Source of the DNA: Candidatus Collierbacteria bacterium
Lineage (GTDB): Bacteria; Patescibacteriota; Microgenomatia; UBA1400; MFAQ01
Length of the DNA stretch: 64,000 bases
NCBI GenBank assembly: GCA_903886255.1
Contig: CAISLM010000014.1
Coordinates: forward strand, 13,562 to 77,561
Reading direction: 5' to 3'
Positions 7,509 to 22,636 of this stretch are shown here, one piece after another; within the stretch, counting starts at the first letter, position 1, and every line of letters begins with the position of its first letter. The position numbers and the translations under genes were made by a program. The notes below the pieces were generated by a model. The model was not told the DNA's origin. It did not search any database and saw nothing but the letters and a program-made list of their open reading frames with translations.

Positions 7509-8183
7509 ATGAGAATACTAATAGTAGAAGACGAACATAGGATCGCGACCTCCATCAAGAAAGGTTTGGAGCTGGAAAAATACGCCGTTGATGTTGCTTT
7601 TGATGGTCGGGATGGTTTTGATTTAGCTTCGACAGAAGAATATGACTGCATAATCCTAGACTTAATGTTGCCGGGAATGGACGGGCTTGAAATTTGTAAA
7701 AAACTGAGAGAAAAACAGATTCATACTCCAATATTGATCTTAACAGCCAGGAGCCAGACCGAAAACAAAATCGAAGGGCTCGACTCGGGTGCAGACGATT
7801 ATCTGACCAAACCATTTTCGTTTGAAGAGCTCCTCGCCCGCCTCAGAGCGCTAATTAGAAGACCAAATGGAACACAAGGAACGGTTCTTAAAGTCGGCAA
7901 TCTCGAGCTGGATACAGTAAGTTATAACGTCAAGAGGGGAGAGAAGGCCATTCAACTTTCAAGCAAAGAATATGCATTACTTGAATACCTTATGCGCCAA
8001 TCGGGGAACATAGTTTCTAAGGACAAAATAGTCACTCATGTCTGGAACTACGATGATGATGTTCTTCCAAATACAGTCGAGGTTTACATTAGAAAACTAC
8101 GACAAAAAATTGATATTCCTTTTAAAAATGAAAAATCGCTAATTAATACAATTAGAGGGTTCGGTTATAAAATCGAAAGTTAA
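7509..8183 (+). CDS. OmpR-family two-component response regulator
   Basis: Receiver domain (MRILIVEDE...DLMLPGMDG) plus a winged-helix C-terminus (LTKPF...VYIRKLRQKI...GFGY). Confidence 0.85.
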   Translation: MRILIVEDEHRIATSIKKGLELEKYAVDVAFDGRDGFDLASTEEYDCIILDLMLPGMDGLEICKKLREKQIHTPILILTARSQTENKIEGLDSGADDYLTKPFSFEELLARLRALIRRPNGTQGTVLKVGNLELDTVSYNVKRGEKAIQLSSKEYALLEYLMRQSGNIVSKDKIVTHVWNYDDDVLPNTVEVYIRKLRQKIDIPFKNEKSLINTIRGFGYKIES

Positions 8184-9196
8184 TGTTTCAAAAAGCAAGA
8201 CTAAAACTCACGGCTTGGTATCTCCTTATTATTATGCTGGTTTGCTTTTGCCTAAGTGCCGTAATTTTTAGGATTCAAATGTCCGAAGTTGATAGATTTG
8301 CCAGAGCCCAAAGAGTTAGGATGGAAAGTCAATTTCCTCCCGGAATATTTGCTAATCAAGTTCCCGTCGCAGTTGATCCGGATCTTATCGCGGAAACGCA
8401 AATGCATTTATTGTTTAATTTATTGACACTAAACGGAATAATCATTGTTATTGCCGGCGGCCTAGGTTATCTCTTGGCGGGTAAGACACTTTATCCAATT
8501 AAAATAATGTTGGAAGACCAAAATCGTTTTATATCAGATTCCTCCCATGAGTTACGAACACCCTTAACATCGCTTAAGAGCTCCATGGAAGTCGCCATGA
8601 TGGACAAAAACCTAACACTTACCGAAGCCAAAAATCTTATTATTGAGAATCTAGATGATGTTAATAGACTACAAAAACTATCTGACTCGCTTATACAGCT
8701 AACGAAAGGTAAAAACAATTCGGCTCAGAATCTTGACCTGGAAGTGGCCTCAACAACATTCCTGGTTAAAACCTCTATTGATCAACTCAAAGCCCAAGCA
8801 AGTATCAAGAAAATAAAAATCAGATCGTTAATTAAAAATGCATCATTGAAAGTAGATAAAAACAAAATCGTAAATTTATTGGTTATCCTTTTGGATAATG
8901 CAATCAAATACAGTCCTGAAAAAAGTACTGTTGTAGTCAAATCATGGAAGACCAAACATTTTGTCTTCTTCTCAATTAAAGATCAGGGTGTCGGAATTGC
9001 GGAAAAAGATCTTCCCCATATATTTGATAGATTCTATCGGGCTGATGCCTCGCGTTCAAATGCAAATACCCCCGGTTACGGACTTGGTTTGTCAATTGCA
9101 AAACTAATTGTAAATGAACACAAAGGCTCCATTTCTGTGAAAAGTTTTACTAAAAATGGTACGATTTTCTTGGTTAAGCTCCCTTCAAAAAACTAA
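8183..9196 (+). CDS. sensor histidine kinase
   Basis: Two N-terminal TM segments, an H-box SHELRTPLTSL, and a HATPase G-box GYGLGLSIAK. The start overlaps the RR stop (TAATG). Confidence 0.8.
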   Translation: MFQKARLKLTAWYLLIIMLVCFCLSAVIFRIQMSEVDRFARAQRVRMESQFPPGIFANQVPVAVDPDLIAETQMHLLFNLLTLNGIIIVIAGGLGYLLAGKTLYPIKIMLEDQNRFISDSSHELRTPLTSLKSSMEVAMMDKNLTLTEAKNLIIENLDDVNRLQKLSDSLIQLTKGKNNSAQNLDLEVASTTFLVKTSIDQLKAQASIKKIKIRSLIKNASLKVDKNKIVNLLVILLDNAIKYSPEKSTVVVKSWKTKHFVFFSIKDQGVGIAEKDLPHIFDRFYRADASRSNANTPGYGLGLSIAKLIVNEHKGSISVKSFTKNGTIFLVKLPSKN

Positions 9197-9265
9197 CCGG
9201 TATAAACATTTCAGCTACATTTAAGTTTCATAAACTAAATTACCAGCGTAACTAATAAAAATATT

Positions 9266-10552
9266 ATGCCGACTATAATAATCAATCTAAAAAACAAAAT
9301 TGTTGGTCTTCCCATTGCAGCCAAAATAATTATCGGTCTGGTCATTGTTGGTGGAGGCTGGTTAGCTTATTCAAAAATTGCTGCTAGCAAGGCGGCGGCT
9401 CCCACTTATCAAACAGCCCAAGTTGAAAAGGGAACCTTAATTACATCTGTCACTGCCTCGGGGAATATTACTACCGGTAACAACCTAACCATCTCCACAA
9501 CAGCTACGGGAACCGTAAACAAAGTTTATGTTCAAAACGGAGACACAGTAACAGCCGGACAAAAAATTGCCGATATTACTCTAGATCAGGATGGTCTGCA
9601 GAGACAAGCTTCCGCCTGGTCTCAATACATTTCTGCACAAAATAGTGTTAAATCACAAACCGACAATTTAAACTCTCTTCAGGCAGCCGAATTTACCGCC
9701 AATCAAAAATTCATGAACGATGCTGTTGTCAGAGGACTTGATACCTCGGACCCAACCTACATTGAAGAAAATGCTACTTGGCTCCAGGCAGAGGCTAATT
9801 ACACCAACCAATTTAGTTCGATTGCTCAAGCAAAAGCCAATCTAACTAGCGCCTGGTATGCATACCAACAAGTTGCCCCATCCGTCGTTTCTCCGGCCAA
9901 CGGAATTGTATCTAACCTTATGATTGCCAGTGGAACTGTAATTACAGGATCAACATCCGGTTCTTCAAATTCTGTTTCTTCTCAACAACTTGGTTCTATC
10001 AAACGACCTGATGAAAATACCCAAGCAATAGTTTCTCTTTCGGAACTTGACGCAGGTAAAGTTAATCCCGGCCAGAAGGTAACAATTACTATGGATGCTT
10101 ATCCTGATAAAACTTTCACCGGTAAAGTTCTCGTTGTAAACACAAATGGTGCCGTTAGCTCGGGAGTCACCACATACCCTGCCACAATTCAATTTGATAC
10201 GGCCACAGGGAACATCTATCCCAATATGGCAACCACAGCCAAAATCATTACCCAAGTAAAGAACGACGTACTCTTGGCACCATCGACAGCGGTACAAACT
10301 ACCAACGGGTCAACATCTTTAAGAGAATTAGTTAATGGTGTCCTTACAAACGTTCCTGTTGTAGTTGGAGATTCAAATGATACGCAAACAGAAATAGTTT
10401 CCGGCGCTAACGAGGGGGACATGGTAGTTACCAGTATTAGATCAACAAGCGCAACCACAACCAGCACCAATGCCACCTCAATATTTGGGGCTCTAGGTGG
10501 AGCTGCAAGGGGAGGTGTTGGTGGTGGAGCTGCGGTTAGATTCGGAAACTAA
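9266..10552 (+). CDS. efflux transporter periplasmic adaptor (HlyD/MacA-like membrane fusion protein)
   Basis: N-terminal TM anchor and a biotinyl/lipoyl-like hairpin (VQNGDTVTAGQKIADI). Sits immediately upstream of the ABC ATPase + FtsX-like permease. Confidence 0.65.
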   Translation: MPTIIINLKNKIVGLPIAAKIIIGLVIVGGGWLAYSKIAASKAAAPTYQTAQVEKGTLITSVTASGNITTGNNLTISTTATGTVNKVYVQNGDTVTAGQKIADITLDQDGLQRQASAWSQYISAQNSVKSQTDNLNSLQAAEFTANQKFMNDAVVRGLDTSDPTYIEENATWLQAEANYTNQFSSIAQAKANLTSAWYAYQQVAPSVVSPANGIVSNLMIASGTVITGSTSGSSNSVSSQQLGSIKRPDENTQAIVSLSELDAGKVNPGQKVTITMDAYPDKTFTGKVLVVNTNGAVSSGVTTYPATIQFDTATGNIYPNMATTAKIITQVKNDVLLAPSTAVQTTNGSTSLRELVNGVLTNVPVVVGDSNDTQTEIVSGANEGDMVVTSIRSTSATTTSTNATSIFGALGGAARGGVGGGAAVRFGN

Positions 10553-10553
10553 A

Positions 10554-11270
10554 ATGACAGAAAAACCAATAATTGTAACCAGGCACCTGTCTAAGATTTA
10601 CAAGACGGAATCGCTCGAAACTGTTGCCCTAGCGGATGTATCGATCCAAATTAATAAAGGTGAATTTGTGGCCATCATGGGTCCATCCGGGTCAGGAAAA
10701 TCAACCTTAATGCACATACTTGGTGCCCTTGATAAACCGACACAGGGAGAATATATTCTTGATGGAGAAAATGTTGAGAAACTATCTGATGATGAACTGG
10801 CCGACATTAGAAATCGTAAAATTGGCTTTGTTTTTCAAGCCTTTAATCTTCTTCCGCGAACCACGGCTTTAAAAAATGTTATGTTGCCCATGGTTTACGC
10901 GGGAATTCCCAAAGAAGAAAGATTAAAAATAGCCCAAAAATATTTAACCATGGTAGGCCTTGCAGATCGAATGAACCACACTACAAACCAGATTTCCGGT
11001 GGTCAGCAACAACGTGTAGCAATAGCCCGCGCCCTATGTTTGAATCCTGCCATGATTCTTGCAGATGAACCTACCGGAAATATAGCTTCAGCTCAAGCCG
11101 AGGAAATCATGGACATCTTTCAAAAATTAAATCGTGAAGGCCACACTATCGTCATGATTACCCACGAGCCGGACATCGCCGAACACGCTCAGAGAATTAT
11201 TCACATTAAAGACGGAAGAATTGTTTTGGATTCCACCTCACACAAACAAAGATTAATCAACAAAAAATGA
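10554..11270 (+). CDS. ABC transporter ATP-binding protein (MacB/LolD/FtsE-like)
   Basis: Walker A GPSGSGKST, signature LSGGQQQRVAIARAL, Walker B ILADEPTGN. ATG at 10554 directly after the adaptor stop. Confidence 0.85.
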   Translation: MTEKPIIVTRHLSKIYKTESLETVALADVSIQINKGEFVAIMGPSGSGKSTLMHILGALDKPTQGEYILDGENVEKLSDDELADIRNRKIGFVFQAFNLLPRTTALKNVMLPMVYAGIPKEERLKIAQKYLTMVGLADRMNHTTNQISGGQQQRVAIARALCLNPAMILADEPTGNIASAQAEEIMDIFQKLNREGHTIVMITHEPDIAEHAQRIIHIKDGRIVLDSTSHKQRLINKK

Positions 11271-12505
11271 TCAAAAAAAGTATAGACTACGCCGAGGTAC
11301 TTTCGGAAGGCATCGGAACACTAACCTTAAATAAAACCAGAACAGGTCTGGCTATTTTAGGAATTGTTATCGGGATTGGTAGTGTGATTGCTTTAGTTTC
11401 TCTTGGCCAAGCTACACAAGCAAGTATTTCTGCCAGGATAGAATCTTTAGGATCTAATCTTCTCACAATAAATCCGGGTGCCCAAAACACAGGGGCAGTT
11501 AGAGGTGCGGCCGGCAGTCGAACCACTCTCACTTTAGATGACGCTAATGCCATCGCCAATTCGCCTGATATAACTACGATAAATAGTGTCTCCCCCGAAT
11601 TTTCCAGAAGAACACAAATTATTACCGGCGCCAATAACACAAACACTCAAGTTGTTGGTGTTGCGGATACATATACTGAGGTTCATAAAGTCGCCATTGA
11701 TCAAGGAAGCTTCATCACACAAAGAGATGTTGCCGCCATAAATAAGGTGGCCGTGCTCGGCTCTCAAGTGGTTACCGATTTATTTGGTGCCGGCGCTAAC
11801 CCAATAGGACAAACGATTCGGATAAGCGGAAAAACATTTACTATTGTTGGTACTACAGTATCAAAAGGCGGAACCGGTTTCGGGAATCAAGACGACATTG
11901 TTTATGTACCAATTTCAACCGCCCAAAAAGAATTATTTGGTGTAAATTATTTAAGCTCAATCGCACTTGAGGCAAAATCTGCTTCAGTTATGACTGCCGC
12001 CCAAGATGAAGTTGGCTACTTTTTACTCACACGCCATCATCTAAGTGATCCCACCCAAGCTGATTTCTCCATTCTTTCTCAGCAAGACATCCTCAACACA
12101 GCCTCTGCGACAACATCAACCTTTACCTCTTTACTTTCTGGTATCGCTGCCATTTCGCTATTAGTCGGAGGAATCGGCATCATGAATATTATGCTCGTTA
12201 CCGTTACGGAAAGAACTAGGGAGATCGGCTTAAGAAAAGCACTCGGTGCCCAAAAAAGAAATATTATTGCTCAGTTTTTAACTGAATCAATTATTCTCAC
12301 CTTTACCGGTGGAATTATTGGTATATTTTTCGGAATCGCAGCCTCCTATATCATTTCTCGCCTCACAAGCTCAGGTTTTGTCATCTCACCCTCATCAATT
12401 CTTCTGGCATTTGTAGTTTCAGCAGGTATCGGAATTTTATTTGGATGGTACCCTGCCCAAAGAGCTGCAAATCTTCAACCGATTGAGGCTCTTAGATATG
12501 AATAA
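11267..12505 (+). CDS. ABC transporter permease, FtsX/MacB-type
   Basis: N-terminal TM segment, large periplasmic domain, C-terminal 3-TM FtsX-like bundle (GIGIMNIMLVTVTERTREIGLRKALGA). ATGA overlap with the ATPase. Confidence 0.8.
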   Translation: MIKKSIDYAEVLSEGIGTLTLNKTRTGLAILGIVIGIGSVIALVSLGQATQASISARIESLGSNLLTINPGAQNTGAVRGAAGSRTTLTLDDANAIANSPDITTINSVSPEFSRRTQIITGANNTNTQVVGVADTYTEVHKVAIDQGSFITQRDVAAINKVAVLGSQVVTDLFGAGANPIGQTIRISGKTFTIVGTTVSKGGTGFGNQDDIVYVPISTAQKELFGVNYLSSIALEAKSASVMTAAQDEVGYFLLTRHHLSDPTQADFSILSQQDILNTASATTSTFTSLLSGIAAISLLVGGIGIMNIMLVTVTERTREIGLRKALGAQKRNIIAQFLTESIILTFTGGIIGIFFGIAASYIISRLTSSGFVISPSSILLAFVVSAGIGILFGWYPAQRAANLQPIEALRYE

Positions 12506-12524
12506 TTATTAATTAATAAAATAT

Positions 12525-12965
12525 ATGAACAAAAATCTCACTACAACTATTATCGTTGCAGTAATTGCTATTGCGATTGGCTTTTTCGCGGGCACCAAAT
12601 ATCAAGCATCTAAAGCCACATCTGCTGCCGCTACTCTTCGAGCTCAGTTTGCAGCGGGAGGGACAGGACGAGGAACGGGTGGAGGAAGATTGGGTGCCGG
12701 TGGCGGTCAGGTAACCGGAACGATACTAAGCGCGGATAGTGGTTCGATTACTGTGAAGCTTCAAGACGGGAGCTCAAAGATCGTAATCATAAGCGGGTCA
12801 ACTGCCATTGATAAAACGGCTGTTGGATCGATGAATGATCTCTCTGTCGGCACACGAGTCGGCGTGTTTGGCACCACTAACTCTGATGGTAGCGTAACGG
12901 CTCAAAATGTTCAGGTAAACCCTGCTATGAGAACGGCAACGCCCAGTGCTGCGCCAACAAAATAG
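12525..12965 (+). CDS. membrane-anchored Gly-rich beta-rich small protein (DUF5666-like?)
   Basis: N-terminal TM anchor and a GGTGRGTGGGRLGAGGG linker, followed by repetitive beta-strand-like segments (ITVKLQDGSSKIVIISGSTAIDKT...). Confidence 0.45.
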   Translation: MNKNLTTTIIVAVIAIAIGFFAGTKYQASKATSAAATLRAQFAAGGTGRGTGGGRLGAGGGQVTGTILSADSGSITVKLQDGSSKIVIISGSTAIDKTAVGSMNDLSVGTRVGVFGTTNSDGSVTAQNVQVNPAMRTATPSAAPTK

Positions 12966-12984: not shown

Positions 12985-13012
12985 AAAAATCTCCCATTTC
13001 GGGGGATTTTTG
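12985..13012 (+). terminator. rho-independent terminator
   Basis: ATCTCCCatttcGGGGGAT stem-loop followed by TTTTGTT, downstream of the 12525..12965 gene. Confidence 0.55.
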
Positions 13013-13057: not shown

Positions 13058-15907
13058 ATGAGAGATTTGCGTGGGTTATTTTCGCCAAAATCCGTAACAA
13101 TAATTGGAGCATCGAAGTCCCCGGAAAAAGTAGGAGCAATCGTTTTAAAAAATATTATTGACTCCGGTTTCAAGGGAGCCGTGTACCCTGTTAATCCCAA
13201 AGAAACTGACATCTCCGGACTAAAGTGTTTCCCAAATGTAAATAGTCTCCCGGAAATTCCTGATTTGGCTGTGTTTGCTATTCCTTCTTCCGTTGCCATT
13301 GGTGTCCTGGAAGAAGTCGGAATAAAAGGCATAAAAAATGCAGTCATTTTTACCGCCGGATTTAAAGAGATTGGCAGAGAAGGGGAGATCTTAGAAAAAG
13401 AGCTTGTAGACGTTGCCAATAAATATCAAATTAATGTGTTGGGACCAAATTGTTTAGGATTTGCGAATAATAATTTGCCAATAAATGTTACCTTCGGACA
13501 AGTAGTCAAGGAACAAGGTAATCTTCGGATTATTTCTCAATCCGGAGCTATTGCTGCCAGTCTCTTTGATTGGTGTCAAACAACAAAGCTTGGATTTGGT
13601 GAATTCATCACAATCGGAAATAAAGCTGTAGTGACCGAAAATGACGTCTTAAATTACTGGGCGTCAAATCCTCAACCCATCATCGATCAGCCGGGAATTT
13701 CCAAAGTTTCACCTATTGGCTTATATTTAGAATCAATCGCCCAAGGCGAGGATTTTGTTAAAATCGCCACAGAAATTTCCAAAACAACACCCATATTTGC
13801 ACTTAAACCCGGTAAATCTATCGCAGCCGCATCAGCTATGCATTCGCACACCGGAGCTATCGCCGGTGTTGATAGCGTTCTTGACATCGCACTAAAACAG
13901 TCAGGGGTTATTCGATGTGCAGATTTAAATGTATTTTTTGATTTGGCGAGAGCCTTTTCTTGGGAAAATGTTCCTAAAGGCCCAAGAGTCGCTGTTGTAT
14001 CCAATGCCGGTGGTCCAGCTGTTCTTAGTACTGACTCTATTGAAGAATTTGGTTTACAAATGGCCCAGTTTGGATCAGAAACTCAAAAAAAATTAGCCGC
14101 CTTTTTGCCAAGGATGGCCAGCTTCCTTAATCCCGTTGATGTTTTGGGAGATGCTTTGGCAGACCGGTTTGGTCATGCCCTTGAAGCTGTTTTGCAGGAG
14201 CCGACTGTCGATGCCGCTATCGTCATTCTTACTCCTCAGTTAATGACTCAGATAGAAAAAACTGCCGAAATAATCGGCAATATGTCCGCCAAATTTTTTC
14301 AGCCGATTTTATGCTCATTTATTGGAGGAAGTTTGGCCGCGGTAGGAGAAAAAAAATTAAATGAATGTAAAATTCCTTCGTTCCCCTTTCCCGAAATGTC
14401 TATAAAAACACTTTCGTTGATGTGGAAATGGCAAGATTGGAGAAACAAAAACATCACTTTACCAACGCCCGAAGAATCTCTCTCTCAAAATACTGATACA
14501 GTAAAAAATATTTTATCTTCAGCCAGAGCCAATCGCCAACTAAATCTTGATAGCTTTGCGGCAAACGATGTCATGGTTGCCGCCGGGATCTCAACACCAC
14601 CCACACTCTCGGTGTCAGACTCATCCCAAGCACAGCAATTTGCCGACAAAGAAGGTTGGCCGGTCGTCCTAAAAATTTCGTCACCCAATCTATTACATAA
14701 GGCAGACGTTGGCGGGGTCATTGCACATATCCACAACACAAACGAGTTGTTGATTGCAGGAAATAAAATAATCCAACAAATTAGAACATTAGATCAGGAA
14801 ACAAAAAGTGGTGCCAAAATTCAAATTCAAAAAGAAATCATTGGCGGTGTCGAAGTAATCGTCGGAGTCAAAAGAGATCCTAATTTCGGACCGGTTATTT
14901 TGTTTGGAGCCGGAGGAAAATTCGCAGAGCTGCTGGTAGACAGGAACCTTCATCTTTTGCCTATCAACCGCGAGCAAGCCAAGCAATTAGTTGCCGGCTC
15001 AAAAGTTTATACGTTATTAAACGGATTCCGAGGGGATGAATCATACGATCTAGAGCCTTTGTACAGTACGATAATTCGTCTTGGACAGCTTGCTGAAATG
15101 GTCCCCGATATTGCTGAAATAGAAATCAATCCACTAATTATTACTCACAACGGAGTTTGGGCGGTAGACAGTAAGGTTGTCTTAACACAGCCAACCGACC
15201 GACCACTCAACATTCCTAAATTTAACTCTGCAACGGCTATTTCTCACAATATTCTTTCTCCAAATATTCACGAAATCGAGTTTCAAACTCAACTTCCAAT
15301 AGTAATCAAGTCCGGACAATTTATCAGTGTTAGAGTTAGTGATCAAAGAATCAACGCCTACTCAATCGCTGGGTCAACCGACCCAAATCATTTCCAACTA
15401 TTGATAGATGTCAGTCCTCAAGGCGTCGGTTCAAAATATTTTGAAAATTTGAAAGTAGGAGAAACAATTACTTTCTTAGGACCGGTCGGTTTATTTAATC
15501 TAAAGCCGGACGATGGCTCCCAACAACTTCTTTTCTTAGGAACAGGGTCGGGAATTGTTCCCCTGAAATTTATTATTGAAGATGCTCTAAAAAACAAAAA
15601 TATCACTCAACCAATCTCGCTTTATTTTGGCTTAAGATACAAAGAAGATATTTTTTGGCAAGATATTTTCGATGATTTAACCGGTAAATATCCCAATTTT
15701 CATTACAAACTTTGCTTGTCCAAACCAACGGAAGATTGGACAGGATACAAAGGGCATATCACCGACCTCGTTCACCAAGAGTTTCCTGACACTTCGCGAT
15801 GCGGTGCCTATTTGTGTGGCGGCAAGACAATGGTAGAAGAATCATCTAATATATTACTTAGCTCTGGTTGTCCGGCCGAAAGGATATATTCAGAAAAATT
15901 TAATTAA
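13058..15907 (+). CDS. acetate--CoA ligase (ADP-forming), fused alpha+beta, with C-terminal ferredoxin-NADP reductase-like FAD/NAD(P) domain
   Basis: N-terminal CoA-binding/ligase-CoA region (SVTIIGAS...VNP...NVLGPNCLG), central ATP-grasp-like part, C-terminal ~230 aa with FNR motifs RINAYSIAGS (RxYS), LFLGTGSGIVPL, YLCGGKTMVE, ERIYSEKF. Confidence 0.8.
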   Translation: MRDLRGLFSPKSVTIIGASKSPEKVGAIVLKNIIDSGFKGAVYPVNPKETDISGLKCFPNVNSLPEIPDLAVFAIPSSVAIGVLEEVGIKGIKNAVIFTAGFKEIGREGEILEKELVDVANKYQINVLGPNCLGFANNNLPINVTFGQVVKEQGNLRIISQSGAIAASLFDWCQTTKLGFGEFITIGNKAVVTENDVLNYWASNPQPIIDQPGISKVSPIGLYLESIAQGEDFVKIATEISKTTPIFALKPGKSIAAASAMHSHTGAIAGVDSVLDIALKQSGVIRCADLNVFFDLARAFSWENVPKGPRVAVVSNAGGPAVLSTDSIEEFGLQMAQFGSETQKKLAAFLPRMASFLNPVDVLGDALADRFGHALEAVLQEPTVDAAIVILTPQLMTQIEKTAEIIGNMSAKFFQPILCSFIGGSLAAVGEKKLNECKIPSFPFPEMSIKTLSLMWKWQDWRNKNITLPTPEESLSQNTDTVKNILSSARANRQLNLDSFAANDVMVAAGISTPPTLSVSDSSQAQQFADKEGWPVVLKISSPNLLHKADVGGVIAHIHNTNELLIAGNKIIQQIRTLDQETKSGAKIQIQKEIIGGVEVIVGVKRDPNFGPVILFGAGGKFAELLVDRNLHLLPINREQAKQLVAGSKVYTLLNGFRGDESYDLEPLYSTIIRLGQLAEMVPDIAEIEINPLIITHNGVWAVDSKVVLTQPTDRPLNIPKFNSATAISHNILSPNIHEIEFQTQLPIVIKSGQFISVRVSDQRINAYSIAGSTDPNHFQLLIDVSPQGVGSKYFENLKVGETITFLGPVGLFNLKPDDGSQQLLFLGTGSGIVPLKFIIEDALKNKNITQPISLYFGLRYKEDIFWQDIFDDLTGKYPNFHYKLCLSKPTEDWTGYKGHITDLVHQEFPDTSRCGAYLCGGKTMVEESSNILLSSGCPAERIYSEKFN

Positions 15908-15916
15908 ATCATATTT

Positions 15917-17635
15917 ATGTCAAATAAAGTCTACTCAATAAAAATAGGAGGAATGGCGGGTCAAGGTATAAAAAGTGCCGGATTAAATTTTGCCAAAGTT
16001 GCAGCCAGATCAGGTTATAACATCTACAACTATATTGAGTACCCTTCATTAATCAGGGGTGGCCACAATGTTATGCAAACTACTTTCTCTTTGGATGAGG
16101 TTCATTCACAGATTCAGTCTGTTGATTTTTTAATTGCTCTCAATCAAGAAACAATTAACCTTCATAAAGACGAATTAGTTTCAGGAGCAGGTATCATCTT
16201 TGAAGACGAAGGGAAAATTGATGCAACCGCCTGTAAAGACAAATGCCGACTTTTCGCAGTCCCTCTAAAAAAACTGGCCACTGAAGCCGGAGGTCAGGAA
16301 ATAGTTTCAAACAATGTTGCTCTTGGAGCATCTATTTCCTTAATGGGAGGAGACATAAAATATCTATTCGACTTAATCGATGAGGATTTTTCTTTCAAAC
16401 CGGAAATTGCCGAAATAAATAAAAAAGCTGCTCAATCCGGTTATGAATATGCCCAAACAAATTTCCCCAATAAATTTGATTCGTTGCTTACACCCCAAAA
16501 AAACGCCAATAAAAAAATTGTAGTCAATGGTACTGATGGAGTGGCCTTCGGTGCAATTGCGGCCGGACTTCAATATACAGCTATATATCCCATGTCACCG
16601 ACCTCAAACATTCTAACCATTCTCGCCGCCAATCAACGCGAATATGGATATATATACAAACAAGCAGAAGATGAAATTGCTGCCATAAATATGTCTCTTG
16701 GAGCCTCTTTTGCCGGAGCAAGAGCTATGACAACCACATCTGGTGGCGGGTTTTGTCTTATGACCGAAGGTTTTGGCTTAGCTGGGCAAACTGAAACGCC
16801 TATTGTCATTGTCGAGGGCATGAGAGGAGGCCCCGGTACCGGTTTGCCAACCTGGAGTGAACAGGGTGACTTGCGTATGGTGCTTCACGCGCACCAAGGT
16901 GAATTTCCCAGAATCGTAGTTGCCGCAGGCGATGCAGAGGAAGCTTTCCATCAAATAATGCTCGCCTTTAATCTTGCCGAAAAGTATCAAACGCCTGTTG
17001 TACTTTTGGTAGATAAAAATATTTTGGACGATGAACAAACATTCCCTAAATTCGACTATTCTTCATATCAGATTAATCGTGGCAAGATGGTCAGAGAAAA
17101 GGATCCTGAATACCACCGCTATGTCGTTACAGATGACGGCATTTCTCCTAGAACCATTCCGGGAGTAGGAAATCACCTTGTCGCCAATTCTGATGAACAT
17201 AACTCCTATGGTTATTCCAGCGAAACAATCTCCGACCGAAATGAACAAGTTCAAAAAAGATTGAGAAAACTAGAAACCTGTGCCAAAGAAGATATGGGAA
17301 AACCCATACTTTTTGGTCCTGAAAATGCAGAGATAACTATTGTTTCCTGGGGTAGTTGCAAAGGACCAATTTTGGAGGCTATGAAGGATTATCCCTTTGT
17401 AAATTACCTTCACATAAATTGGATTAATCCGTTCCCGGCAGACGCAATTAAAGCCATTCTTTCACGTTCCACGTACCTTTTAGATATCGAGTGCAACAGC
17501 ACGGCTCAGATGGCTGGTTTAATTAGGGAAAAAACGGGTATTGACATACTTGATAGATTTTTAAAGAACGACGGCCGTCCATTTTTCCCGGAAGAGATTA
17601 AAGATAAAATTAACAGTATTATAAAAACACGATGA
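15917..17635 (+). CDS. 2-oxoacid:ferredoxin oxidoreductase subunit alpha (gamma-alpha fused)
   Basis: N-terminal POR/KOR gamma-type domain (GGMAGQGIKSAG), then the alpha domain (TDGVAFGAIAAG...PMSPTS...GGGFCLMTEG). Confidence 0.85.
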   Translation: MSNKVYSIKIGGMAGQGIKSAGLNFAKVAARSGYNIYNYIEYPSLIRGGHNVMQTTFSLDEVHSQIQSVDFLIALNQETINLHKDELVSGAGIIFEDEGKIDATACKDKCRLFAVPLKKLATEAGGQEIVSNNVALGASISLMGGDIKYLFDLIDEDFSFKPEIAEINKKAAQSGYEYAQTNFPNKFDSLLTPQKNANKKIVVNGTDGVAFGAIAAGLQYTAIYPMSPTSNILTILAANQREYGYIYKQAEDEIAAINMSLGASFAGARAMTTTSGGGFCLMTEGFGLAGQTETPIVIVEGMRGGPGTGLPTWSEQGDLRMVLHAHQGEFPRIVVAAGDAEEAFHQIMLAFNLAEKYQTPVVLLVDKNILDDEQTFPKFDYSSYQINRGKMVREKDPEYHRYVVTDDGISPRTIPGVGNHLVANSDEHNSYGYSSETISDRNEQVQKRLRKLETCAKEDMGKPILFGPENAEITIVSWGSCKGPILEAMKDYPFVNYLHINWINPFPADAIKAILSRSTYLLDIECNSTAQMAGLIREKTGIDILDRFLKNDGRPFFPEEIKDKINSIIKTR

Positions 17636-18489
17636 TAACCGCTGCAGAATTAGCCACTCCAAATTTTCCGAACTGGTGCCCGGGTTGTGGCAACTTTGGT
17701 ATTTGGGCTGCTTTTAAAAACGCCGCCGTCACATCAGACTGGGACAATACAAATACCGCTTTTGTCGCCGGCATAGGCTGCCATGGGCATATGGTCAATT
17801 TTGTTAAACTTACCTCGTTCGAGGGACTGCACGGAAGACCAATTCCTGTGGCAACAGGAATAAAGATGGCTAATCACAGATTAAATGTTTTTGTTTTTAC
17901 CGGTGATGGCGATTGTCTCGGTGAAGGCGGAAATCATTTTATCAACGCAGCCCGGAGAAATCACAACATTACAGTCCTCTTACACAACAATAATATTTAT
18001 GGTCTGACCACCGGCCAAACCTCTCCCACCACCAGGAAAGATTTCCCAACCAAATCCACCCCGGACGGCAATCCCGATGAACCGTTTAAAGTTTTAAATC
18101 TGGCCATCGCCGCCGGAGCCACTTTTGCAGCCAGGGTCTACGCCAATGATATTGCCGGTCTTTCGGCCATGATCATTAAAGCTAATGAGCATCAGGGATT
18201 TTCTGTCGTGGAAATGCTCCAGCCCTGCATTACCTTCAACAAAGAATGTTCTCCCACTTTCTTTACGGATAATACTTATAAACTTCCCGATTCTTACGAT
18301 CCGACCAATATTGCTGCCGCTCTAGAAAAAACCTTGGAATTCGGTGAAAAACAAATTCCGGTAGGACTATTTTATAAAGTTGACAAACCAACTGCCGAAT
18401 CAGAATTTCCTCAGATAGATGCAAAGCCTTTAGTTGATAATCAAGTTGAAAAAAGAGATGTTTCCGAACTTTTGCAAACCCTTTATTAA
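17632..18489 (+). CDS. 2-oxoacid:ferredoxin oxidoreductase subunit beta (TPP-binding)
   Basis: WCPGCGNFG...GIGCHG...FTGDGDCLGEGGNHF TPP/Mg-binding pattern. ATGA overlap with the alpha subunit. Confidence 0.85.
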   Translation: MITAAELATPNFPNWCPGCGNFGIWAAFKNAAVTSDWDNTNTAFVAGIGCHGHMVNFVKLTSFEGLHGRPIPVATGIKMANHRLNVFVFTGDGDCLGEGGNHFINAARRNHNITVLLHNNNIYGLTTGQTSPTTRKDFPTKSTPDGNPDEPFKVLNLAIAAGATFAARVYANDIAGLSAMIIKANEHQGFSVVEMLQPCITFNKECSPTFFTDNTYKLPDSYDPTNIAAALEKTLEFGEKQIPVGLFYKVDKPTAESEFPQIDAKPLVDNQVEKRDVSELLQTLY

Positions 18490-18541
18490 TTAACAATGTC
18501 ATTCCCGACCGAGGTCGTGGAATCTATACAAATTACAAAAT

Positions 18542-18805
18542 ATGGATAATCAAACGCCAGCAACAGATAAAGAAGTCATGGTCGGTAAATACAAAGTTAA
18601 AGTTGTTCGCAATATGTGCATCGGAGCAGCCACTTGTGTCGCAGTAGCCGCCGCCAATTTTCAGCTGGATTCGGAAAACAAAGCAGTCCCGGCAGAAGGA
18701 GGAGCCGATTTGGAAGCAGCGGTTCTTTTGGCCGCCCAATCATGTCCCACCAAAGCCATTGTGATTATTGATACCACCACCGGCAAACAAGTCTGGCCCG
18801 ACTAA
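18542..18805 (+). CDS. small single-cluster ferredoxin
   Basis: CIGAATC...CP spacing typical of mono-cluster [3Fe/4Fe-4S] ferredoxins. The real start is possibly the internal MVGKYKV (~18578). Confidence 0.6.
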   Translation: MDNQTPATDKEVMVGKYKVKVVRNMCIGAATCVAVAAANFQLDSENKAVPAEGGADLEAAVLLAAQSCPTKAIVIIDTTTGKQVWPD

Positions 18806-19527
18806 ATACTTTCAGCCACCTTCCTTGTCCAAAACCTAAGCCTTTCGCTTTGATTTTGTGTGAGTTTGGCAGCCAAATAACCTAGATGGACCGCGATATC
18901 ATTTCCAATGTTCAGCCCATGGGTTAGATCAGGATCAATTCGCACCTCTTGTTTTCTGGAATTTACTTCATATTTACCATCGTTTTTGACATTTATAATT
19001 TCTCTCTCCACGGATGCCTTCGCATTATTTGTATCTAGTGCTATTACTTTTCCATATGCCACCATACAGTTATTTATTCTATTTTCCTTTTCCGCATTTT
19101 CATAATCGGCTGCTGCAATTAAAATTACCTGTGAAAGGTGGGTTAAATATAATTTTTCCGGCAGTTGTTTTTCAAGGCCTTTTGCAAATCCGCCCGGCAG
19201 TTGTTTTTCATATTGATCTACTAACGCCTCTCCAGCATTATCGGCAGCTATTTCAGTTAGATCTTCACCCAGCCAATACGACTCAACAACATGTTCGTCA
19301 AACATATCCAAGCCACTAGTTTGAGAAATTGCTCTAAGAAAAGCATTCAAATGTGGAAAACCATGGTTGCAAAGAGTTTCTCTAACCAAATCGTAATCTA
19401 ATTCTTTTTCCGATACGAGGTTCCTTAATATTACCTGGCTAGCATCCTCTCCACAAAAACCCCACATATTTGGCTGTATTGCAAATCTCGCAGCATTTTC
19501 CAGTCCATCCATTATATTTTCCTTCAT
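18802..19527 (-). CDS. hypothetical protein; C-terminal ~95 aa resembles a HypC/HupF-like beta-barrel
   Basis: CMVAYGKVIALD...EVRIDPDLTHGLNIGNDIAVHLGYLAAKL parallels the HypC consensus (MCLAIPxKVIxID...VxLxLVP...VGDYVLVHVGFA). Its Cys is internal, not N-terminal. Confidence 0.45.
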   Translation of the reverse strand: MKENIMDGLENAARFAIQPNMWGFCGEDASQVILRNLVSEKELDYDLVRETLCNHGFPHLNAFLRAISQTSGLDMFDEHVVESYWLGEDLTEIAADNAGEALVDQYEKQLPGGFAKGLEKQLPEKLYLTHLSQVILIAAADYENAEKENRINNCMVAYGKVIALDTNNAKASVEREIINVKNDGKYEVNSRKQEVRIDPDLTHGLNIGNDIAVHLGYLAAKLTQNQSERLRFWTRKVAESI

Positions 19528-19564
19528 TACTGAGATTATATTACTTTCGTTATAATGAACCTAA

Positions 19565-19963
19565 ATGAATATCTTAGTTTTTGGCAACCAAGACCACCCT
19601 GATGATAATCTTGCATTTAAAGTCTCGGAAAAACTAAGCGGCTTAGCCAATATTTCCTTTCAGGTCATTAATCCAAATTCAGATATTCCACTTCCGGACA
19701 ATAAAAAGATATATCTAATCGACACAGTAGTCGGAATTGATAATGTGACACTTATTACGGAAAATGATCTCAATAAAATACTTCTCTCTCCAAGAACAAC
19801 CGCACATGATTATGACTTGGGATTTCAACTCAAATATTTAACAAAAATTGGCAAAATAAAAAAAGTCTTCATTATCGGCTTGCCCATTAGCGGAAATGTG
19901 GATTACGATCTAATCCACTTGATCTTAAGAAAGTTGGTTGCGCAAGACATGCAAGGATCATAA
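19565..19963 (+). CDS. hydrogenase maturation endopeptidase (HycI/HoxW/HybD family)
   Basis: MNILVFGNQDHPDDNLAFKV N-terminus matches the family ILVLGxGNxLxxDDGxGxxV. Its 3' end overlaps the large-subunit 3' end by 61 nt (convergent). Confidence 0.7.
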   Translation: MNILVFGNQDHPDDNLAFKVSEKLSGLANISFQVINPNSDIPLPDNKKIYLIDTVVGIDNVTLITENDLNKILLSPRTTAHDYDLGFQLKYLTKIGKIKKVFIIGLPISGNVDYDLIHLILRKLVAQDMQGS

Positions 19964-21204
19964 GCTCGTATTATCTTTTCGGCGTTTAATTTCAAAGTTT
20001 GTTCATCTTTATCCAGGTTTGCTCCGAAATATTTTTTAAGATCGTTTTCTATGTTAATTTGGTTTTGTGCCGTCGGTACAATCACGTCGTAGTTTTTTAT
20101 TCTGCCCTTACTGTCAGTTTCAACATGATGATATAGTGTTCCTCTCGGAGCTTCTACAACCCCAACTCCTACACCTGCTTTTGGGGGCTGGGTAATTGGT
20201 TTTTCTTCCACTAATTTTATCGATTTTAATATTTCGATCGAATCGTCTACACAATTAAGTATTTCGATAGCTTGAGCCAAATTATTGTGATAAACGTTAT
20301 TTGAAGGAAATATGTCCAAATATTTTGCCGCATCTGTTTTAGTTCTTTGATTCAACAGTTCTTTTTCCAAATTTATTCTGGCTAGAGCCCCCACTAAATA
20401 ATCATCGTGTGTATCGGAAAAGATATAACCTTCCGACTGAGAATAAGGAATAATTACAGAATGTAGAAAATCGTGAAAATGTTCTTCCGTAGTGATTCTG
20501 CCACTACTATTAACAATATTTCCTTCCAAGAAATCATAATGATCGGAATTTTTTAAGCAAAGATAGTCTGAATTTCTCACGAGAACATCCGGCATTTTTG
20601 AAAAAGCTTCAATACCTCTTAATACTTGAACACGAATTTTTTCCAGTCGATCAATCATTGTTGGGAATAACGAGGGATCAGGCATCTTTAAGAATCCTCC
20701 CACTGTCGGAAGTGGCGCATGAATAGCTGCTCCGGAGATCATAACCGAAAGATCGGATCCGACCTCCTTTATGTCAAACGAGTCGTGTAACAATTGGTGG
20801 CCGAGATTTCCGTCTTCGTCCGGAATATCCAATATTGAATCGATACCCAGCAGATCCGGCAATACAAAAAAATATAAGTGGAGTGCATGATCACGTATCA
20901 TCAAGCCGTTGTAGGTTAATCTTCTCAGTAATTTTGTCTGATCTGAAGGAATAATTCCTTGAGATTTTTCAATCGCCTCAATGGAGCAAAGCAAATGGGC
21001 TATCGAACAAGTTCCGCAGATTCTCGAAATAAATGAAGGAACTGCCACAAAAGGTTTTCCTTCGACTGCTTTTGCATAGAAACGTCGATAATCCTTAATC
21101 ATAAATTTCAGATCAACTACCTTATCATCTACTATTTTTACCTTCAAACCGGCCGTGCCTTCGATCTTAGTAATATTTTCGATCGTGATATCTGCTGTAT
21201 GCAT
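19903..21204 (-). CDS. [NiFe] hydrogenase large subunit (433 aa, short group 3/4-like form)
   Basis: L1 motif RICGTCSIAH near the N-terminus and L2 motif DPCMSCATN with a 9-aa C-terminal extension. Confidence 0.85.
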   Translation of the reverse strand: MHTADITIENITKIEGTAGLKVKIVDDKVVDLKFMIKDYRRFYAKAVEGKPFVAVPSFISRICGTCSIAHLLCSIEAIEKSQGIIPSDQTKLLRRLTYNGLMIRDHALHLYFFVLPDLLGIDSILDIPDEDGNLGHQLLHDSFDIKEVGSDLSVMISGAAIHAPLPTVGGFLKMPDPSLFPTMIDRLEKIRVQVLRGIEAFSKMPDVLVRNSDYLCLKNSDHYDFLEGNIVNSSGRITTEEHFHDFLHSVIIPYSQSEGYIFSDTHDDYLVGALARINLEKELLNQRTKTDAAKYLDIFPSNNVYHNNLAQAIEILNCVDDSIEILKSIKLVEEKPITQPPKAGVGVGVVEAPRGTLYHHVETDSKGRIKNYDVIVPTAQNQINIENDLKKYFGANLDKDEQTLKLNAEKIIRAYDPCMSCATNFLKIKWIRS

Positions 21205-21209
21205 TATTT

Positions 21210-21698
21210 TTAAATTATGTTAAACAATTTTAAATATTTATCGACTATTTTGACAAATATATCCGGATTCATCGGACAACCATTAACTTCATCATCTACC
21301 TTTACGAAATCGGAAATCTTTTGTACATCCTTACTGTAGTCGAAGTGACACATATAAAATGCAATCTTGTAATTAATTTCTTCAGGCATAAAAGCATTCC
21401 TGCTGGATGAAGGTTGTCCTGTGCATGCACAAGCACCGATCGTTACCAAATATTTACAATTCTCTCTAATTTTCTTTAAATCCGCTTCTTGTAATTCTGA
21501 TGAGATTGCACCTTCTACAAAAGCAACATCCAAACCCTCAATGCTATTATTGGTTTTTAAAGCTTTGAAATGCTGAAAATCAATCACTTTTTTCCATTCG
21601 TCCAGATGTCTATTAAGCATTTCTGTCAGTAGGATTGTGCTGTCTTCACAACAAGTAAACGAAAACCAGCCAATTTTAAGTTTCTGTTTATTATCCAT
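21210..21698 (-). CDS. [NiFe] hydrogenase small subunit, minimal (proximal-cluster domain only)
   Basis: FTCCEDS, GACACTGQP, GCPMNP are the proximal [4Fe-4S] ligands. Only ~160 aa with no medial/distal cluster domain. Start chosen at MDNKQK; the ORF track extends to 21791. Confidence 0.7.
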   Translation of the reverse strand: MDNKQKLKIGWFSFTCCEDSTILLTEMLNRHLDEWKKVIDFQHFKALKTNNSIEGLDVAFVEGAISSELQEADLKKIRENCKYLVTIGACACTGQPSSSRNAFMPEEINYKIAFYMCHFDYSKDVQKISDFVKVDDEVNGCPMNPDIFVKIVDKYLKLFNII

Positions 21699-21715
21699 GC
21701 TAATATCCATTATAT

Positions 21716-21925
21716 ATGTGTCTAGCATACCCAGGAATAGTAAAAGAAATAAATGGTTTAAAAGCAACTGTCGAATATCCATCTTTTTCAAAAAATGTGC
21801 TGGTAGGCGACCAATATGTAAAGGTTGGGGACAGGGTATTGGTTCAAATGGGGATAATCATAAAAACTATTTCCACAAAAGAGTCCAAGCTAATCACAAA
21901 AGCGTGGGATGAAATTTCAAAATAA
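21716..21925 (+). CDS. hypC: hydrogenase maturation factor HypC/HupF
   Basis: MCLAYPGIVKEINGLKATV...VKVGDRVLVQMGIIIK matches HypC, with Cys2 N-terminal after Met removal. Confidence 0.8.
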   Translation: MCLAYPGIVKEINGLKATVEYPSFSKNVLVGDQYVKVGDRVLVQMGIIIKTISTKESKLITKAWDEISK

Positions 21926-22636
21926 TTAAAATCCTCTAGCATCTCTAAGCGCCTTTATGTTCATTTGAATTCTCGTAAATGCGGTTACCGAACTGTATAA
22001 ATAAAATTTATTATTTTTTTTGGCATCAGAAGGCAAGTCTCTTGGCTTTGCATATATCCTCACCTTACCAATATCCAAAAGCATCAGATACCAACTTGAA
22101 TCAGCATTAACAACAATGTGAAATGGTCCGTCAGGCATTAGTTCAATGCCTGACTTATTTGCCAAATAGAGAATATTCTCCGCTTCTTCTTGAAGCATTT
22201 TTCGAGGGATCTTTACAAACTCCTTATCCATAGGAAAAGTATCCCTTACCTCGGAAGCATCGATCTTTTGATCATAAACACTGGTCACCTCGTCGGCAGA
22301 CAGGTTTGTTGTTGCTACAGTGTTATCATCGACTTTTCGAACAGTTGGGACGACAGTAAATCCACGTTCTCTTAAAGTCTTCCACGCCAAATCATAAGTA
22401 TCCGAGTATGAGAGCGATCTATCAAAGTCGAAACCGGTCAGAGTCGGCAAACAAAAATCTTCGACCTTTCTAGTTAGTACACTAGCTTTATGTTTTTCTC
22501 CAAGATCAAAATATATAAAACTTTTATTTTCTGCGGCTTGTCTTGTTTTTGGAATATGATATTCGAATCTAATAGGGAAAACCGACACTTTTTCCGGAAG
22601 TCCAAATTTTTTCAAATTTATTGATTTTTCTACCAT
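21926..22636 (-). CDS. hypothetical protein
   Basis: 236-aa ORF with no recognised motif. Tightly packed between hypC and ppdK. Confidence 0.45.
   Translation of the reverse strand: MVEKSINLKKFGLPEKVSVFPIRFEYHIPKTRQAAENKSFIYFDLGEKHKASVLTRKVEDFCLPTLTGFDFDRSLSYSDTYDLAWKTLRERGFTVVPTVRKVDDNTVATTNLSADEVTSVYDQKIDASEVRDTFPMDKEFVKIPRKMLQEEAENILYLANKSGIELMPDGPFHIVVNADSSWYLMLLDIGKVRIYAKPRDLPSDAKKNNKFYLYSSVTAFTRIQMNIKALRDARGF

Follow-up and report, generated by a model that had tools for sequence, protein, structure and literature searches.

Why would a bacterium build an ATP-yielding synthetase and a flavoprotein for pyridine nucleotides into one polypeptide? This question is raised by a gene at positions 13058-15907 (plus strand) of a 64,000-nt stretch of DNA from a Candidatus Collierbacteria bacterium (the window, to whose positions all coordinates refer unless another locus is named), in which an NDP-forming acyl-CoA synthetase (ACD) continues in frame into a module of the ferredoxin-NADP reductase (FNR) type. 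The Candidate Phyla Radiation (CPR, or Patescibacteria) accounts for much of the diversity of bacteria, and all that is known of its energy metabolism comes from lists of genes; the routes by which CPR cells re-oxidise ferredoxin and supply themselves with NAD(P)H are poorly defined. Our analysis confirms that ACD-FNR is a real and widely conserved gene of uncultivated Microgenomates bacteria within the CPR. Both of its halves belong to well-known superfamilies. Across related loci, the most constant partner of the FNR module is not the ACD but a block of genes for a 2-oxoacid:ferredoxin oxidoreductase (OFOR), a ferredoxin and a [NiFe] hydrogenase, a point that the initial annotation of this DNA had missed. 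In the reading that we favour, the fused protein would clear both products of the OFOR.

One chain, six domains

The open reading frame (ORF) of the fusion opens with ATG and runs through 949 codons with zero internal stops. Six Pfam domains, each matched above its gathering score, follow one another in this single chain (residues and Pfam E-values in brackets): CoA_binding_2 (11-137, 2.5e-23), Succ_CoA_lig (153-300, 2.8e-37), Ligase_CoA_2 (311-458, 7e-8), ATP-grasp_5 (489-709, 2.6e-60), FAD_binding_6 (728-813, 1e-10) and NAD_binding_1 (826-928, 2.9e-17). The initial annotation had assigned about the first 700 residues to an ACD and the last 230 or so to an FNR, and Pfam, the alignment with PDB entry 8wzu and the AlphaFold2 (AF2) and Foldseek results agree on this division. 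The families of both halves are thus found in the 949-aa protein, and the FNR fold, without which that annotation would fall, is supported by Pfam and Foldseek alike.

Between the halves lies a variable linker, residues 710-720 (15185-15217, plus strand), the only unconserved, gap-rich stretch at this junction and the place where unfused relatives terminate (...KVVL(x)). The full-length AF2 model has a mean predicted local distance difference test score (pLDDT) of 88 and a predicted template modelling score (pTM) of 0.70, with low confidence only in the linker, where pLDDT falls below 50 at residues 714-719, and in a loop before His264. The tether of about ten residues is real and, to judge from the model, flexible, and the physical coupling that the initial annotation envisaged consists in this tether only.

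Conservation across assemblies

When 5.8 billion proteins were searched, the full-length fusion turned up in more than 100 clusters (90% identity), with lengths of 930-975 aa and identities of 52-100%, in assemblies from ENA, JGI, NCBI and Logan. The named carriers are mostly Roizmanbacteria, Levyibacteriota and Woesebacteria (Microgenomates, CPR). The fused ORF is complete and unbroken, at 941-972 aa, in 21 loci of GTDB species representatives; of two further loci, L038 has it cut by a contig end, and L024 keeps an in-frame fragment without the 5' end. As the fusion recurs in independent assemblies and species representatives, both a chimeric assembly, against which the initial annotation had advised checking the ACD/FNR junction, and a frameshift joining two genes can be regarded as practically ruled out by the full-length clusters and the complete ORFs.

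One syntenic locus, L004, whose ACD part is 91% identical to that of the window, appears to contradict this, with ACD and FNR as separate calls and a frameshift at 7848-8018 of that locus. It holds two ACD matches in different frames, and because the second runs in frame into the FNR, the apparent split is a single frameshift inside the ACD part, which is either a sequencing error or the mark of a recent pseudogene.

Several of the metagenome-assembled genomes that bear the locus (L013, L032, L033, L034, L037, L039, L041, L042 and P0012) are labelled Gammaproteobacteria, Pseudomonadales, Saccharibacteria, Woesearchaeota or Methanoperedens; such labels from outside the Microgenomates probably reflect wrong taxonomy or mis-binned contigs.

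The synthetase half

Residues 1-709 (about 1-710; 13058-15184, plus strand) form the synthetase part, which Pfam and the 8wzu alignment resolve into the subdomain order 1-2-5-3-4. All five subdomains of the ACD superfamily are present, in the CoA-binding, flavodoxin-like Succ_CoA_lig, Ligase_CoA_2 and ATP-grasp regions. Residues 7-699 align end to end with 8wzu, the fused ADP-forming 4-hydroxybutyrate-CoA ligase of Nitrosopumilus (E 1e-132), and the half also aligns with the separate alpha and beta subunits of Candidatus Korarchaeum ACD1 (4xyl). With these enzymes it shares the five subdomains in their order, the SHTGA loop and the ATP-grasp histidine, whereas no matched solved chain of the ACD family has the extra C-terminal FNR module of 228 residues.

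The SHTGA loop (13844-13858, plus strand) aligns with the SHTGA of 8wzu and carries the putative phosphohistidine, His264; S263, H264, T265 and G266 are unchanged throughout 42 fused homologues. The loop just before it, residues 253-260, is the sole stretch of low pLDDT within the ACD part of the full-length model, as would be expected of a mobile loop. In the ATP-grasp part, the motif LHKADVGGV (14693-14719, plus strand) aligns with IHKSDAGGV of 8wzu and contains His547, which we take to be the His71-beta of the literature; across the same 42 homologues H547 is invariant, and G552 and G553 are invariant or nearly so. Because the SHTG loop and His547 are invariant, the ACD half looks active, unlike a purely regulatory ACD-like domain, and is predicted to be catalytically competent in the sense of acyl-CoA + ADP + Pi -> acid + CoA + ATP. 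The label of acetyl-CoA synthetase given by the initial annotation is established at the level of the NDP-forming acyl-CoA synthetase family but not as far as the acetyl group: since the scores fall under every NCBIfam equivalog cut-off (TIGR02717, 483.6 against 567; NF045493, 510 against 1300; NF045494, 416 against 1200), the protein is assigned to the family and to no particular acyl substrate.

The same ACD scaffold of about 700 residues is followed by another C-terminal catalytic domain in the acetyltransferases Pat/PatZ (9it0, 9isq), of which 9it0 aligns over query residues 2-705 (E 2.5e-90). There the C-terminal domain is a GNAT, here it is an FNR reductase, and here the catalytic His is kept in the ACD half; the ACD-like domain of Pat is regarded as regulatory. 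As Pfam finds no GNAT match and the similarity to 9it0 stops at residue 705, ACD-FNR is not a Pat, and the FNR module represents a new C-terminal partner for this scaffold besides GNAT.

The reductase module

Pfam, AF2 and Foldseek place an FNR-type FAD/NAD(P)-binding module at residues 722-949 (15221-15904, plus strand). The AF2 model of residues 701-949 reaches a pLDDT of 91.9 and a pTM of 0.87, and Foldseek matches the module to NqrF, cytochrome b5 reductase (b5R), GcoB, BenC and Fre (E 1e-22 to 1e-17, probability 1.00). The two domains that define the FNR fold, a six-stranded FAD-binding barrel and a Rossmann-type NAD(P) domain, are found by all three methods. The NCBIfam matches of the C-terminal 230 residues are to the FAD/NAD halves of MmoC, BenC, AntC and NqrF and to Fre and LuxG, all below cut-offs. 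Neither Fer2 nor any other Fe-S domain is found by Pfam in the 949-aa protein, and the cysteines of residues 711-949 are only four and scattered (886, 915, 920 and 938), in line with the absence of a [2Fe-2S] domain remarked on from the start.

Of the motifs on which the FNR assignment had been based, GTGSGIVP (residues 828-835; 15539-15562, plus strand), CGG...M (CGGKTM, 920-925, within YLCGGKTM, 918-925) and the C-terminal E-x-F are all present, and a phosphate-binding GVGS lies at residues 789-792. The C-terminus reads EKFN, and its F948 aligns with the gating Phe of NqrF, F406. Across the fused set Y768, S769, G789, G791, S792, G830, G832, G921, M925 and E946 are invariant, and C920, P835 and F948 are invariant or nearly so. 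RINAYS (residues 764-769; 15347-15364, plus strand) does occupy the position of the RxYS FAD motif, as had been claimed, but not in its canonical form: in profile alignments Asn766 stands where NqrF (RAYS) and GcoB (RQYS) have Arg, and an Arg is found two residues earlier. Most family members with the canonical Arg (VVRAYS, LVRSYS, TRRSYS) lack both Arg and Lys two residues upstream, and most of those without it carry a basic residue (Arg, sometimes Lys) at that upstream site, a pattern which suggests that the phosphate-binding Arg has been relocated rather than lost. After the second strand of the NAD domain, a conserved GLR aligns with the GARS of NqrF and does not discriminate between NADH and NADPH; NqrF itself is NADH-specific.

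To which class of reductase does the module then belong? Its best sequence and fold matches are BenC, MmoC, T4moF and GcoB together with the FAD domain of NqrF, with which it has in common a short FAD barrel, the GxGxxP and CGxxxM motifs and the C-terminal Phe. The matches span only the FAD/NAD halves (positions 115-340 of MmoC, 121-330 of BenC), since the plant-type [2Fe-2S] domain which these reductases carry in cis is absent here, and the Arg of their RxYS is Asn. For want of this domain ACD-FNR is not a BenC/MmoC-type reductase, and its Fe-S partner would presumably be the separate three-Cys ferredoxin of the operon described below. Fre and LuxG resemble the module in size (about 230 aa) and in having no Fe-S domain, with a target-normalised TM-score of 0.87 to E. 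coli Fre (1qfj), but the module sits in an OFOR/ferredoxin operon, fused to an ACD, and reaches only 79.9 against the NCBIfam cut-off of 230 for Fre and 79.7 against 340 for LuxG. The gamma subunit of group-3b hydrogenases, such as that of Pyrococcus furiosus soluble hydrogenase I (SHI; 9nf0_C), has the FNR fold as well, and its models score 40.8 against 395 (PRK08345) and 30.5 against 600 (ShyC); the gamma subunit's Fe-S domain is missing from the module. With scores so far under these cut-offs, ACD-FNR is neither a Fre/LuxG protein nor a hydrogenase gamma subunit, and an origin of the module from the latter is likewise unsupported by the scores.

The OFOR operon and the hydrogenase

The initial annotation had placed the fusion at the head of an operon with OFOR alpha and beta subunits and a ferredoxin, and gene order and spacing fit this description. 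Only 9 nt separate ACD-FNR from the OFOR alpha gene (15917-17635, plus strand; 572 aa), a gamma-alpha fused subunit identified by TIGR03710 (614 bits against a cut-off of 483) and by Pfam POR and POR_N. It overlaps by 4 nt (17632-17635) with the beta gene (17632-18489, plus strand; 285 aa; TIGR02177, 290 bits against 262; Pfam TPP_enzyme_C and PFO_beta_C), and after another 52 nt follows the gene for a single-cluster ferredoxin of 87 aa (18542-18805, plus strand; Pfam Fer4_13 and Fer4_15). No OFOR delta subunit, in the form of a Fer4-containing gene, is found between or beside alpha and beta, where the separate 87-aa ferredoxin is the only such gene. This ferredoxin has three cysteines (C-I-G-A-A-T-C ... 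C-P), and a three-Cys pattern with a non-ligand residue at the second Cys position recurs in 28 of 31 related loci (Ala in 27, Val in 1); the position is Asp in L030 and L046, and the match in L040 is too short to read. Ferredoxins with CxxAxxC are known to go with [3Fe-4S] clusters, and by this analogy the pattern suggests a [3Fe-4S] cluster here.

Facing the operon on the minus strand are the genes for a [NiFe] hydrogenase. Its large subunit (19903-21204, minus strand) is related to group 3b (NCBIfam HydA/ShyA, 2.8e-65 and 2.4e-60, below cut-off) and keeps both Ni-Fe ligand motifs, RICGTCSIAH and DPCMSC. The small subunit (21210-21791, minus strand) is truncated: its ORF has 193 aa and covers positions 3-151 of the 261 of the HydD model, and homologues match from about residue 35, the orthologues measuring 163-172 aa. 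Neither a beta nor a gamma subunit gene is present among the genes examined around it. The CPR hydrogenases named hyd2 have small subunits of 164 aa on average and no co-located beta or gamma subunits, and their function was called 'uncertain' and their partners left open (PMC7304191; Jaffe et al., 2020). The window hydrogenase, with the same truncation and the same lack of nearby beta and gamma genes, fits this hyd2 clade, its small subunit being apparently cut down to the part that holds the proximal cluster.

Two smaller genes accompany the hydrogenase. A 132-aa protein (19565-19963, plus strand), whose gene is conserved next to that of the large subunit, is probably a maturation protease of the HycI type: the window copy has no Pfam match, and its orthologue in L006 has a weak match to PF01750 HycI. 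A DUF6390 protein (18802-19527, minus strand; Pfam 1.6e-21) is encoded between the ferredoxin and hydrogenase genes, as in 19 of 25 loci, and may be an accessory or partner of the hydrogenase.

The FNR module across related loci

How firmly are these genes tied together? We compared 33 species-level loci, with smaller denominators where the flanking sequence did not suffice. The initial annotation had asked whether relatives carry the fusion or a separate FNR gene; both occur, with 22 of the 33 loci fused and 11 having a stand-alone FNR. OFOR alpha lies downstream of the FNR in 27 of 29 loci, and in 26 of these 27 it starts within 200 nt. A copy of the ferredoxin lies no farther than about 6.5 kb from the FNR in 24 of 28 loci, and 18 of 23 have the NiFe large subunit at a distance of up to 10 kb; the five loci that have enough flank and no hydrogenase are L009, L017, L025, L030 and L034. 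A search with the FNR part by itself returned dozens of stand-alone genes of 228-251 aa with 37-57% identity, while P0121, with 78%, corresponds to the L004 copy with its frameshift. In the best 150 out of 1.84 billion representatives, this FNR subfamily has ACD as its sole fusion partner, and other partners, such as an AMP-forming acyl-CoA synthetase (ACS), were sought and not found within that set.

Stand-alone FNR genes occur in several recurrent settings. In L005/L044, L006/L007, L017 and L036 they lie between an AMP-forming synthetase and OFOR alpha-beta, with a gap of 2 nt from synthetase to FNR in L005; ADP- and AMP-forming synthetases are here swapped non-orthologously in the same operon slot. 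An unfused ACD is found 1.8-3 kb upstream of the FNR in L028, L032, L034 and L039, and the genes in between encode a pyridine-nucleotide-disulfide oxidoreductase (Pyr_redox_2), a flavodoxin or a flavodiiron protein (L028 8264-9955, L039 4461-5750, L034 7375-8556), neighbours that hint at a link to O2 or NO detoxification. FNR and ferredoxin are adjacent with no OFOR in between in L033, L037, L040, L041 and L046, and in L012 it is ACD-FNR that adjoins hyd2, with neither OFOR nor ferredoxin between them. More distant FNR homologues (32-37% identity) have a cysteine desulfurase (Aminotran_5) and a small ferredoxin as neighbours (L040 6744-10908, L046 2793-5655), a context that would suit the supply of electrons from NAD(P)H to ferredoxin for Fe-S cluster assembly.

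Losses are seen as well. In L058 the ACD (107-2245; 79% identical) ends in ...KVVLA and OFOR alpha follows after 42 nt, with OFOR, ferredoxin, DUF6390 and hyd2 all retained: a clean loss of the FNR module alone. In L003 (8001-10854) an unfused ACD of 74% identity is followed directly by the homologue of window gene 21926-22636, and everything between, with the FNR module at one end and the hydrogenase small subunit at the other (compare window positions 15190-21900), is missing, so that this segment behaves as a single insertion/deletion unit. Since the FNR is separate in 11 of the 33 loci and lost in L058, the fusion is favoured but not obligatory. A neighbour-joining (NJ) tree of the ACD parts, which carries no support values, nests all 12 unfused forms of about 712 aa within the fused clade, from which we read these forms as secondary losses. 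In the NJ tree of the FNR parts the basal grade is stand-alone, and one derived clade holds all fusions together with some nested stand-alone lineages. As this tree lacks support values too, any count of fusions and fissions is provisional. A Rosetta-stone split, with the FNR beside an unfused ACD, was also looked for among the nearest unfused ACDs (P0040, P0055), which have neither FNR nor OFOR nearby and which the ACD tree likewise puts within the fused clade.

Proposed function

What can be concluded about the role of the fused protein? We consider it fairly probable that ACD-FNR is bifunctional and clears both products of the OFOR, the acyl-CoA into ATP and the ferredoxin electrons onto NAD(P)+. 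In this scheme, for which we infer the flavin binding, the ferredoxin partner, the electron direction, the choice of NADH or NADPH, the acyl substrate and any physical complex, OFOR would form acyl-CoA, CO2 and reduced ferredoxin from CoA and a 2-oxoacid, probably pyruvate. The ACD half would take the acyl-CoA, give back CoA and yield ATP, and the FNR half would drain the ferredoxin electrons, restore oxidised ferredoxin and yield NAD(P)H. In this way a single protein would regenerate the two co-substrates that OFOR consumes, CoA and oxidised ferredoxin, in 1:1 stoichiometry, with the net reaction 2-oxoacid + ADP + Pi + NAD(P)+ -> acid + CO2 + ATP + NAD(P)H. The hyd2 hydrogenase would serve as a second outlet or inlet, by way of H2, for the same ferredoxin pool, and the FNR module may be the diaphorase that hyd2 lacks. 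An FNR is also what a genome paper on a Microgenomates bacterium assumes to re-oxidise ferredoxin (PMC7143001).

The functionally nearest precedent would be PNO, the pyruvate:NADP+ oxidoreductase. In the PNO of Euglena and Cryptosporidium, a flavoprotein of the P450-reductase type (FMN + FAD/NADP) is fused to the 2-oxoacid oxidoreductase. The logic would be the same, a 2-oxoacid:ferredoxin-type oxidoreductase being tied to a flavoprotein of the FNR family so as to yield NAD(P)H; in PNO, however, the flavoprotein sits on the oxidoreductase, whereas here a minimal FNR sits on the next enzyme, the ACD, and the operon encodes the ferredoxin as a protein of its own.

Several observations weigh against a bifunctional enzyme of this kind. 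The closest solved relatives of the module would run opposite to the proposed flow from ferredoxin to NAD(P)+: NqrF, GcoB, BenC, MmoC, T4moF and b5R are NADH-oxidising reductases that act as donors to Fe-S centres. The potential of a [3Fe-4S] cluster, if the operon ferredoxin has one, may be too high for the reduction of NAD(P)+ or protons, and Asn766 in place of the canonical Arg could make flavin binding weaker or Fre-like. An AMP-forming synthetase can substitute for the ACD, as in loci of the L005 and L006 type, and the tether is dispensable, given the loss of the FNR in L058 and the 11 of 33 loci in which it is separate. Nor do the pTM of 0.70 and the disordered linker in the AF2 model lend support to a docking of the two halves.

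Which other functions could such a gene serve? It is possible, though on the whole unlikely, that the main job is the exchange NAD(P)H <-> ferredoxin <-> H2 and that OFOR is a second user, with FNR and three-Cys ferredoxin replacing the gamma (FAD/NAD(P)) and beta (Fe-S) subunits of hyd2 as the shared diaphorase of a 'disaggregated' group-3b hydrogenase. This would overlap with the function proposed above, and it draws on the frequency of the hyd2 large subunit and truncated small subunit within 10 kb (18 of 23 loci), on the extent of that truncation and the lack of beta and gamma genes among those examined nearby, on the L012 arrangement and on the presence of the P. furiosus SHI gamma subunit among the Foldseek matches; a 'NAD-binding motif (gamma subunit)' has, moreover, been reported near some hyd2 genes, on the other strand (PMC7304191). 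Yet the module is far nearer to BenC, MmoC, NqrF and Fre, with 80-115 bits, than to the gamma models, where it reaches 30-41 bits and the cut-offs stand at 395-600. It has no Fe-S domain and is linked most tightly to OFOR alpha, and the hydrogenase lies on the opposite strand and is absent from five of the 23 loci. Rather doubtful, in turn, is a bolder form of the proposed function, in which ACD-FNR docks directly on the delta-less OFOR, the three-Cys ferredoxin being an optional shuttle, and forms a non-covalent prokaryotic counterpart of PNO with substrate-level phosphorylation, the FNR and ferredoxin being at the same time the missing 'gamma/beta' partners of hyd2. If true, these minimal cells would obtain ATP, NAD(P)H and H2 exchange from one portable cassette, about 7-9 kb in size.

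The whole pathway might also run in the assimilatory sense, with ACD or ACS activating acetate, the FNR and/or hyd2 reducing ferredoxin, OFOR acting as pyruvate synthase and a pyruvate phosphate dikinase (PPDK; 22710-25349) leading on to phosphoenolpyruvate. The replacement of the ACD by AMP-forming synthetases, which usually activate acids, in five loci (L005, L006, L017, L036 and L044) would agree with this, as would the NADH-oxidising direction of the nearest solved FNR relatives, the presumed flow from NAD(P)H to ferredoxin in the setting of the cysteine desulfurase and the working direction of 8wzu, the best PDB match of the ACD, toward CoA-ester formation. We nevertheless regard it as improbable: passing electrons from NAD(P)H through ferredoxin to the carboxylation of acetyl-CoA (about -500 mV) is steeply uphill unless bifurcation or a membrane potential drives it, neither of these is encoded here, a three-Cys cluster is unlikely to be of very low potential, and the Microgenomates bacterium of PMC7143001 was reconstructed as an acetate-producing fermenter. 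Quite improbable as well is a general NAD(P)H:flavin or flavodoxin reductase of the Fre kind, engaged in defence against O2 or oxidative stress or in enzyme activation and fused by mere adjacency and loss of a stop codon. The matches to the Fre and LuxG models (1.7e-22) and to the structure of E. coli Fre, the replaced Arg of RxYS, which might suit a loosely bound flavin, the flavodoxin, Pyr_redox_2 and flavodiiron genes that flank the FNR in L028, L039 and L034 and the dispensability of the module in L058 all bring such an enzyme to mind, but scores of about 80 against cut-offs of 230-340, the near-constant and tightly spaced linkage to OFOR alpha and ferredoxin and the persistence of the fusion in homologues with as little as about 52% identity, the FNR half being strongly conserved, speak against it. 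Very improbable, finally, is a regulatory role in which the FNR module responds to the NAD(P)H/NAD(P)+ ratio and adjusts the activity of the ACD, after the manner of the ACD-like domain of Pat/PatZ. The Pat-type structures do share the ACD scaffold with another C-terminal domain, and the tether is short; however, the redox-catalytic residues of the FNR are all conserved, the same module stands alone in the same operon position, and the ACD half retains its own catalytic His.

Novelty and wider meaning

The initial annotation had known of no characterisation of this architecture, and our literature search, which covered only a minority of subscription journals, found no paper describing or testing an ACD-FNR fusion and none on partners of hyd2. 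Database names of the fusion are generic ('acetate--CoA ligase family protein'), with a single instance of 'acyl-CoA synthetase (NDP forming)/NAD(P)H-flavin reductase'. What emerges is an FNR module, usually fused to the ATP-forming ACD, that is an almost constant part of an OFOR-ferredoxin-hyd2 cluster whose gains, losses and rearrangements affect it as one unit. The cluster offers a concrete wiring diagram, with candidate partners, for the unexplained hyd2 hydrogenase, and would provide, beside PNO, a second natural case of a 2-oxoacid oxidoreductase system tied to a flavoprotein of the FNR family.

Flanking genes

On the downstream side, the PPDK gene (22710-25349, plus strand) adjoins the cluster, as it also does in L001 and L002, a position compatible with a pyrophosphate-based end step of glycolysis or with gluconeogenesis from pyruvate. 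A promoter scan gave 26 sites where 26.7 were expected, and hence no signal. Upstream of the fusion, genes for a histidine kinase, a MacAB-type ABC exporter, an HlyD-like adaptor and a DUF5666 protein occupy positions 8183-12965 (plus strand), in an order that is the same in L004, and are separated from ACD-FNR by a weak terminator-like hairpin at 12990-13005.

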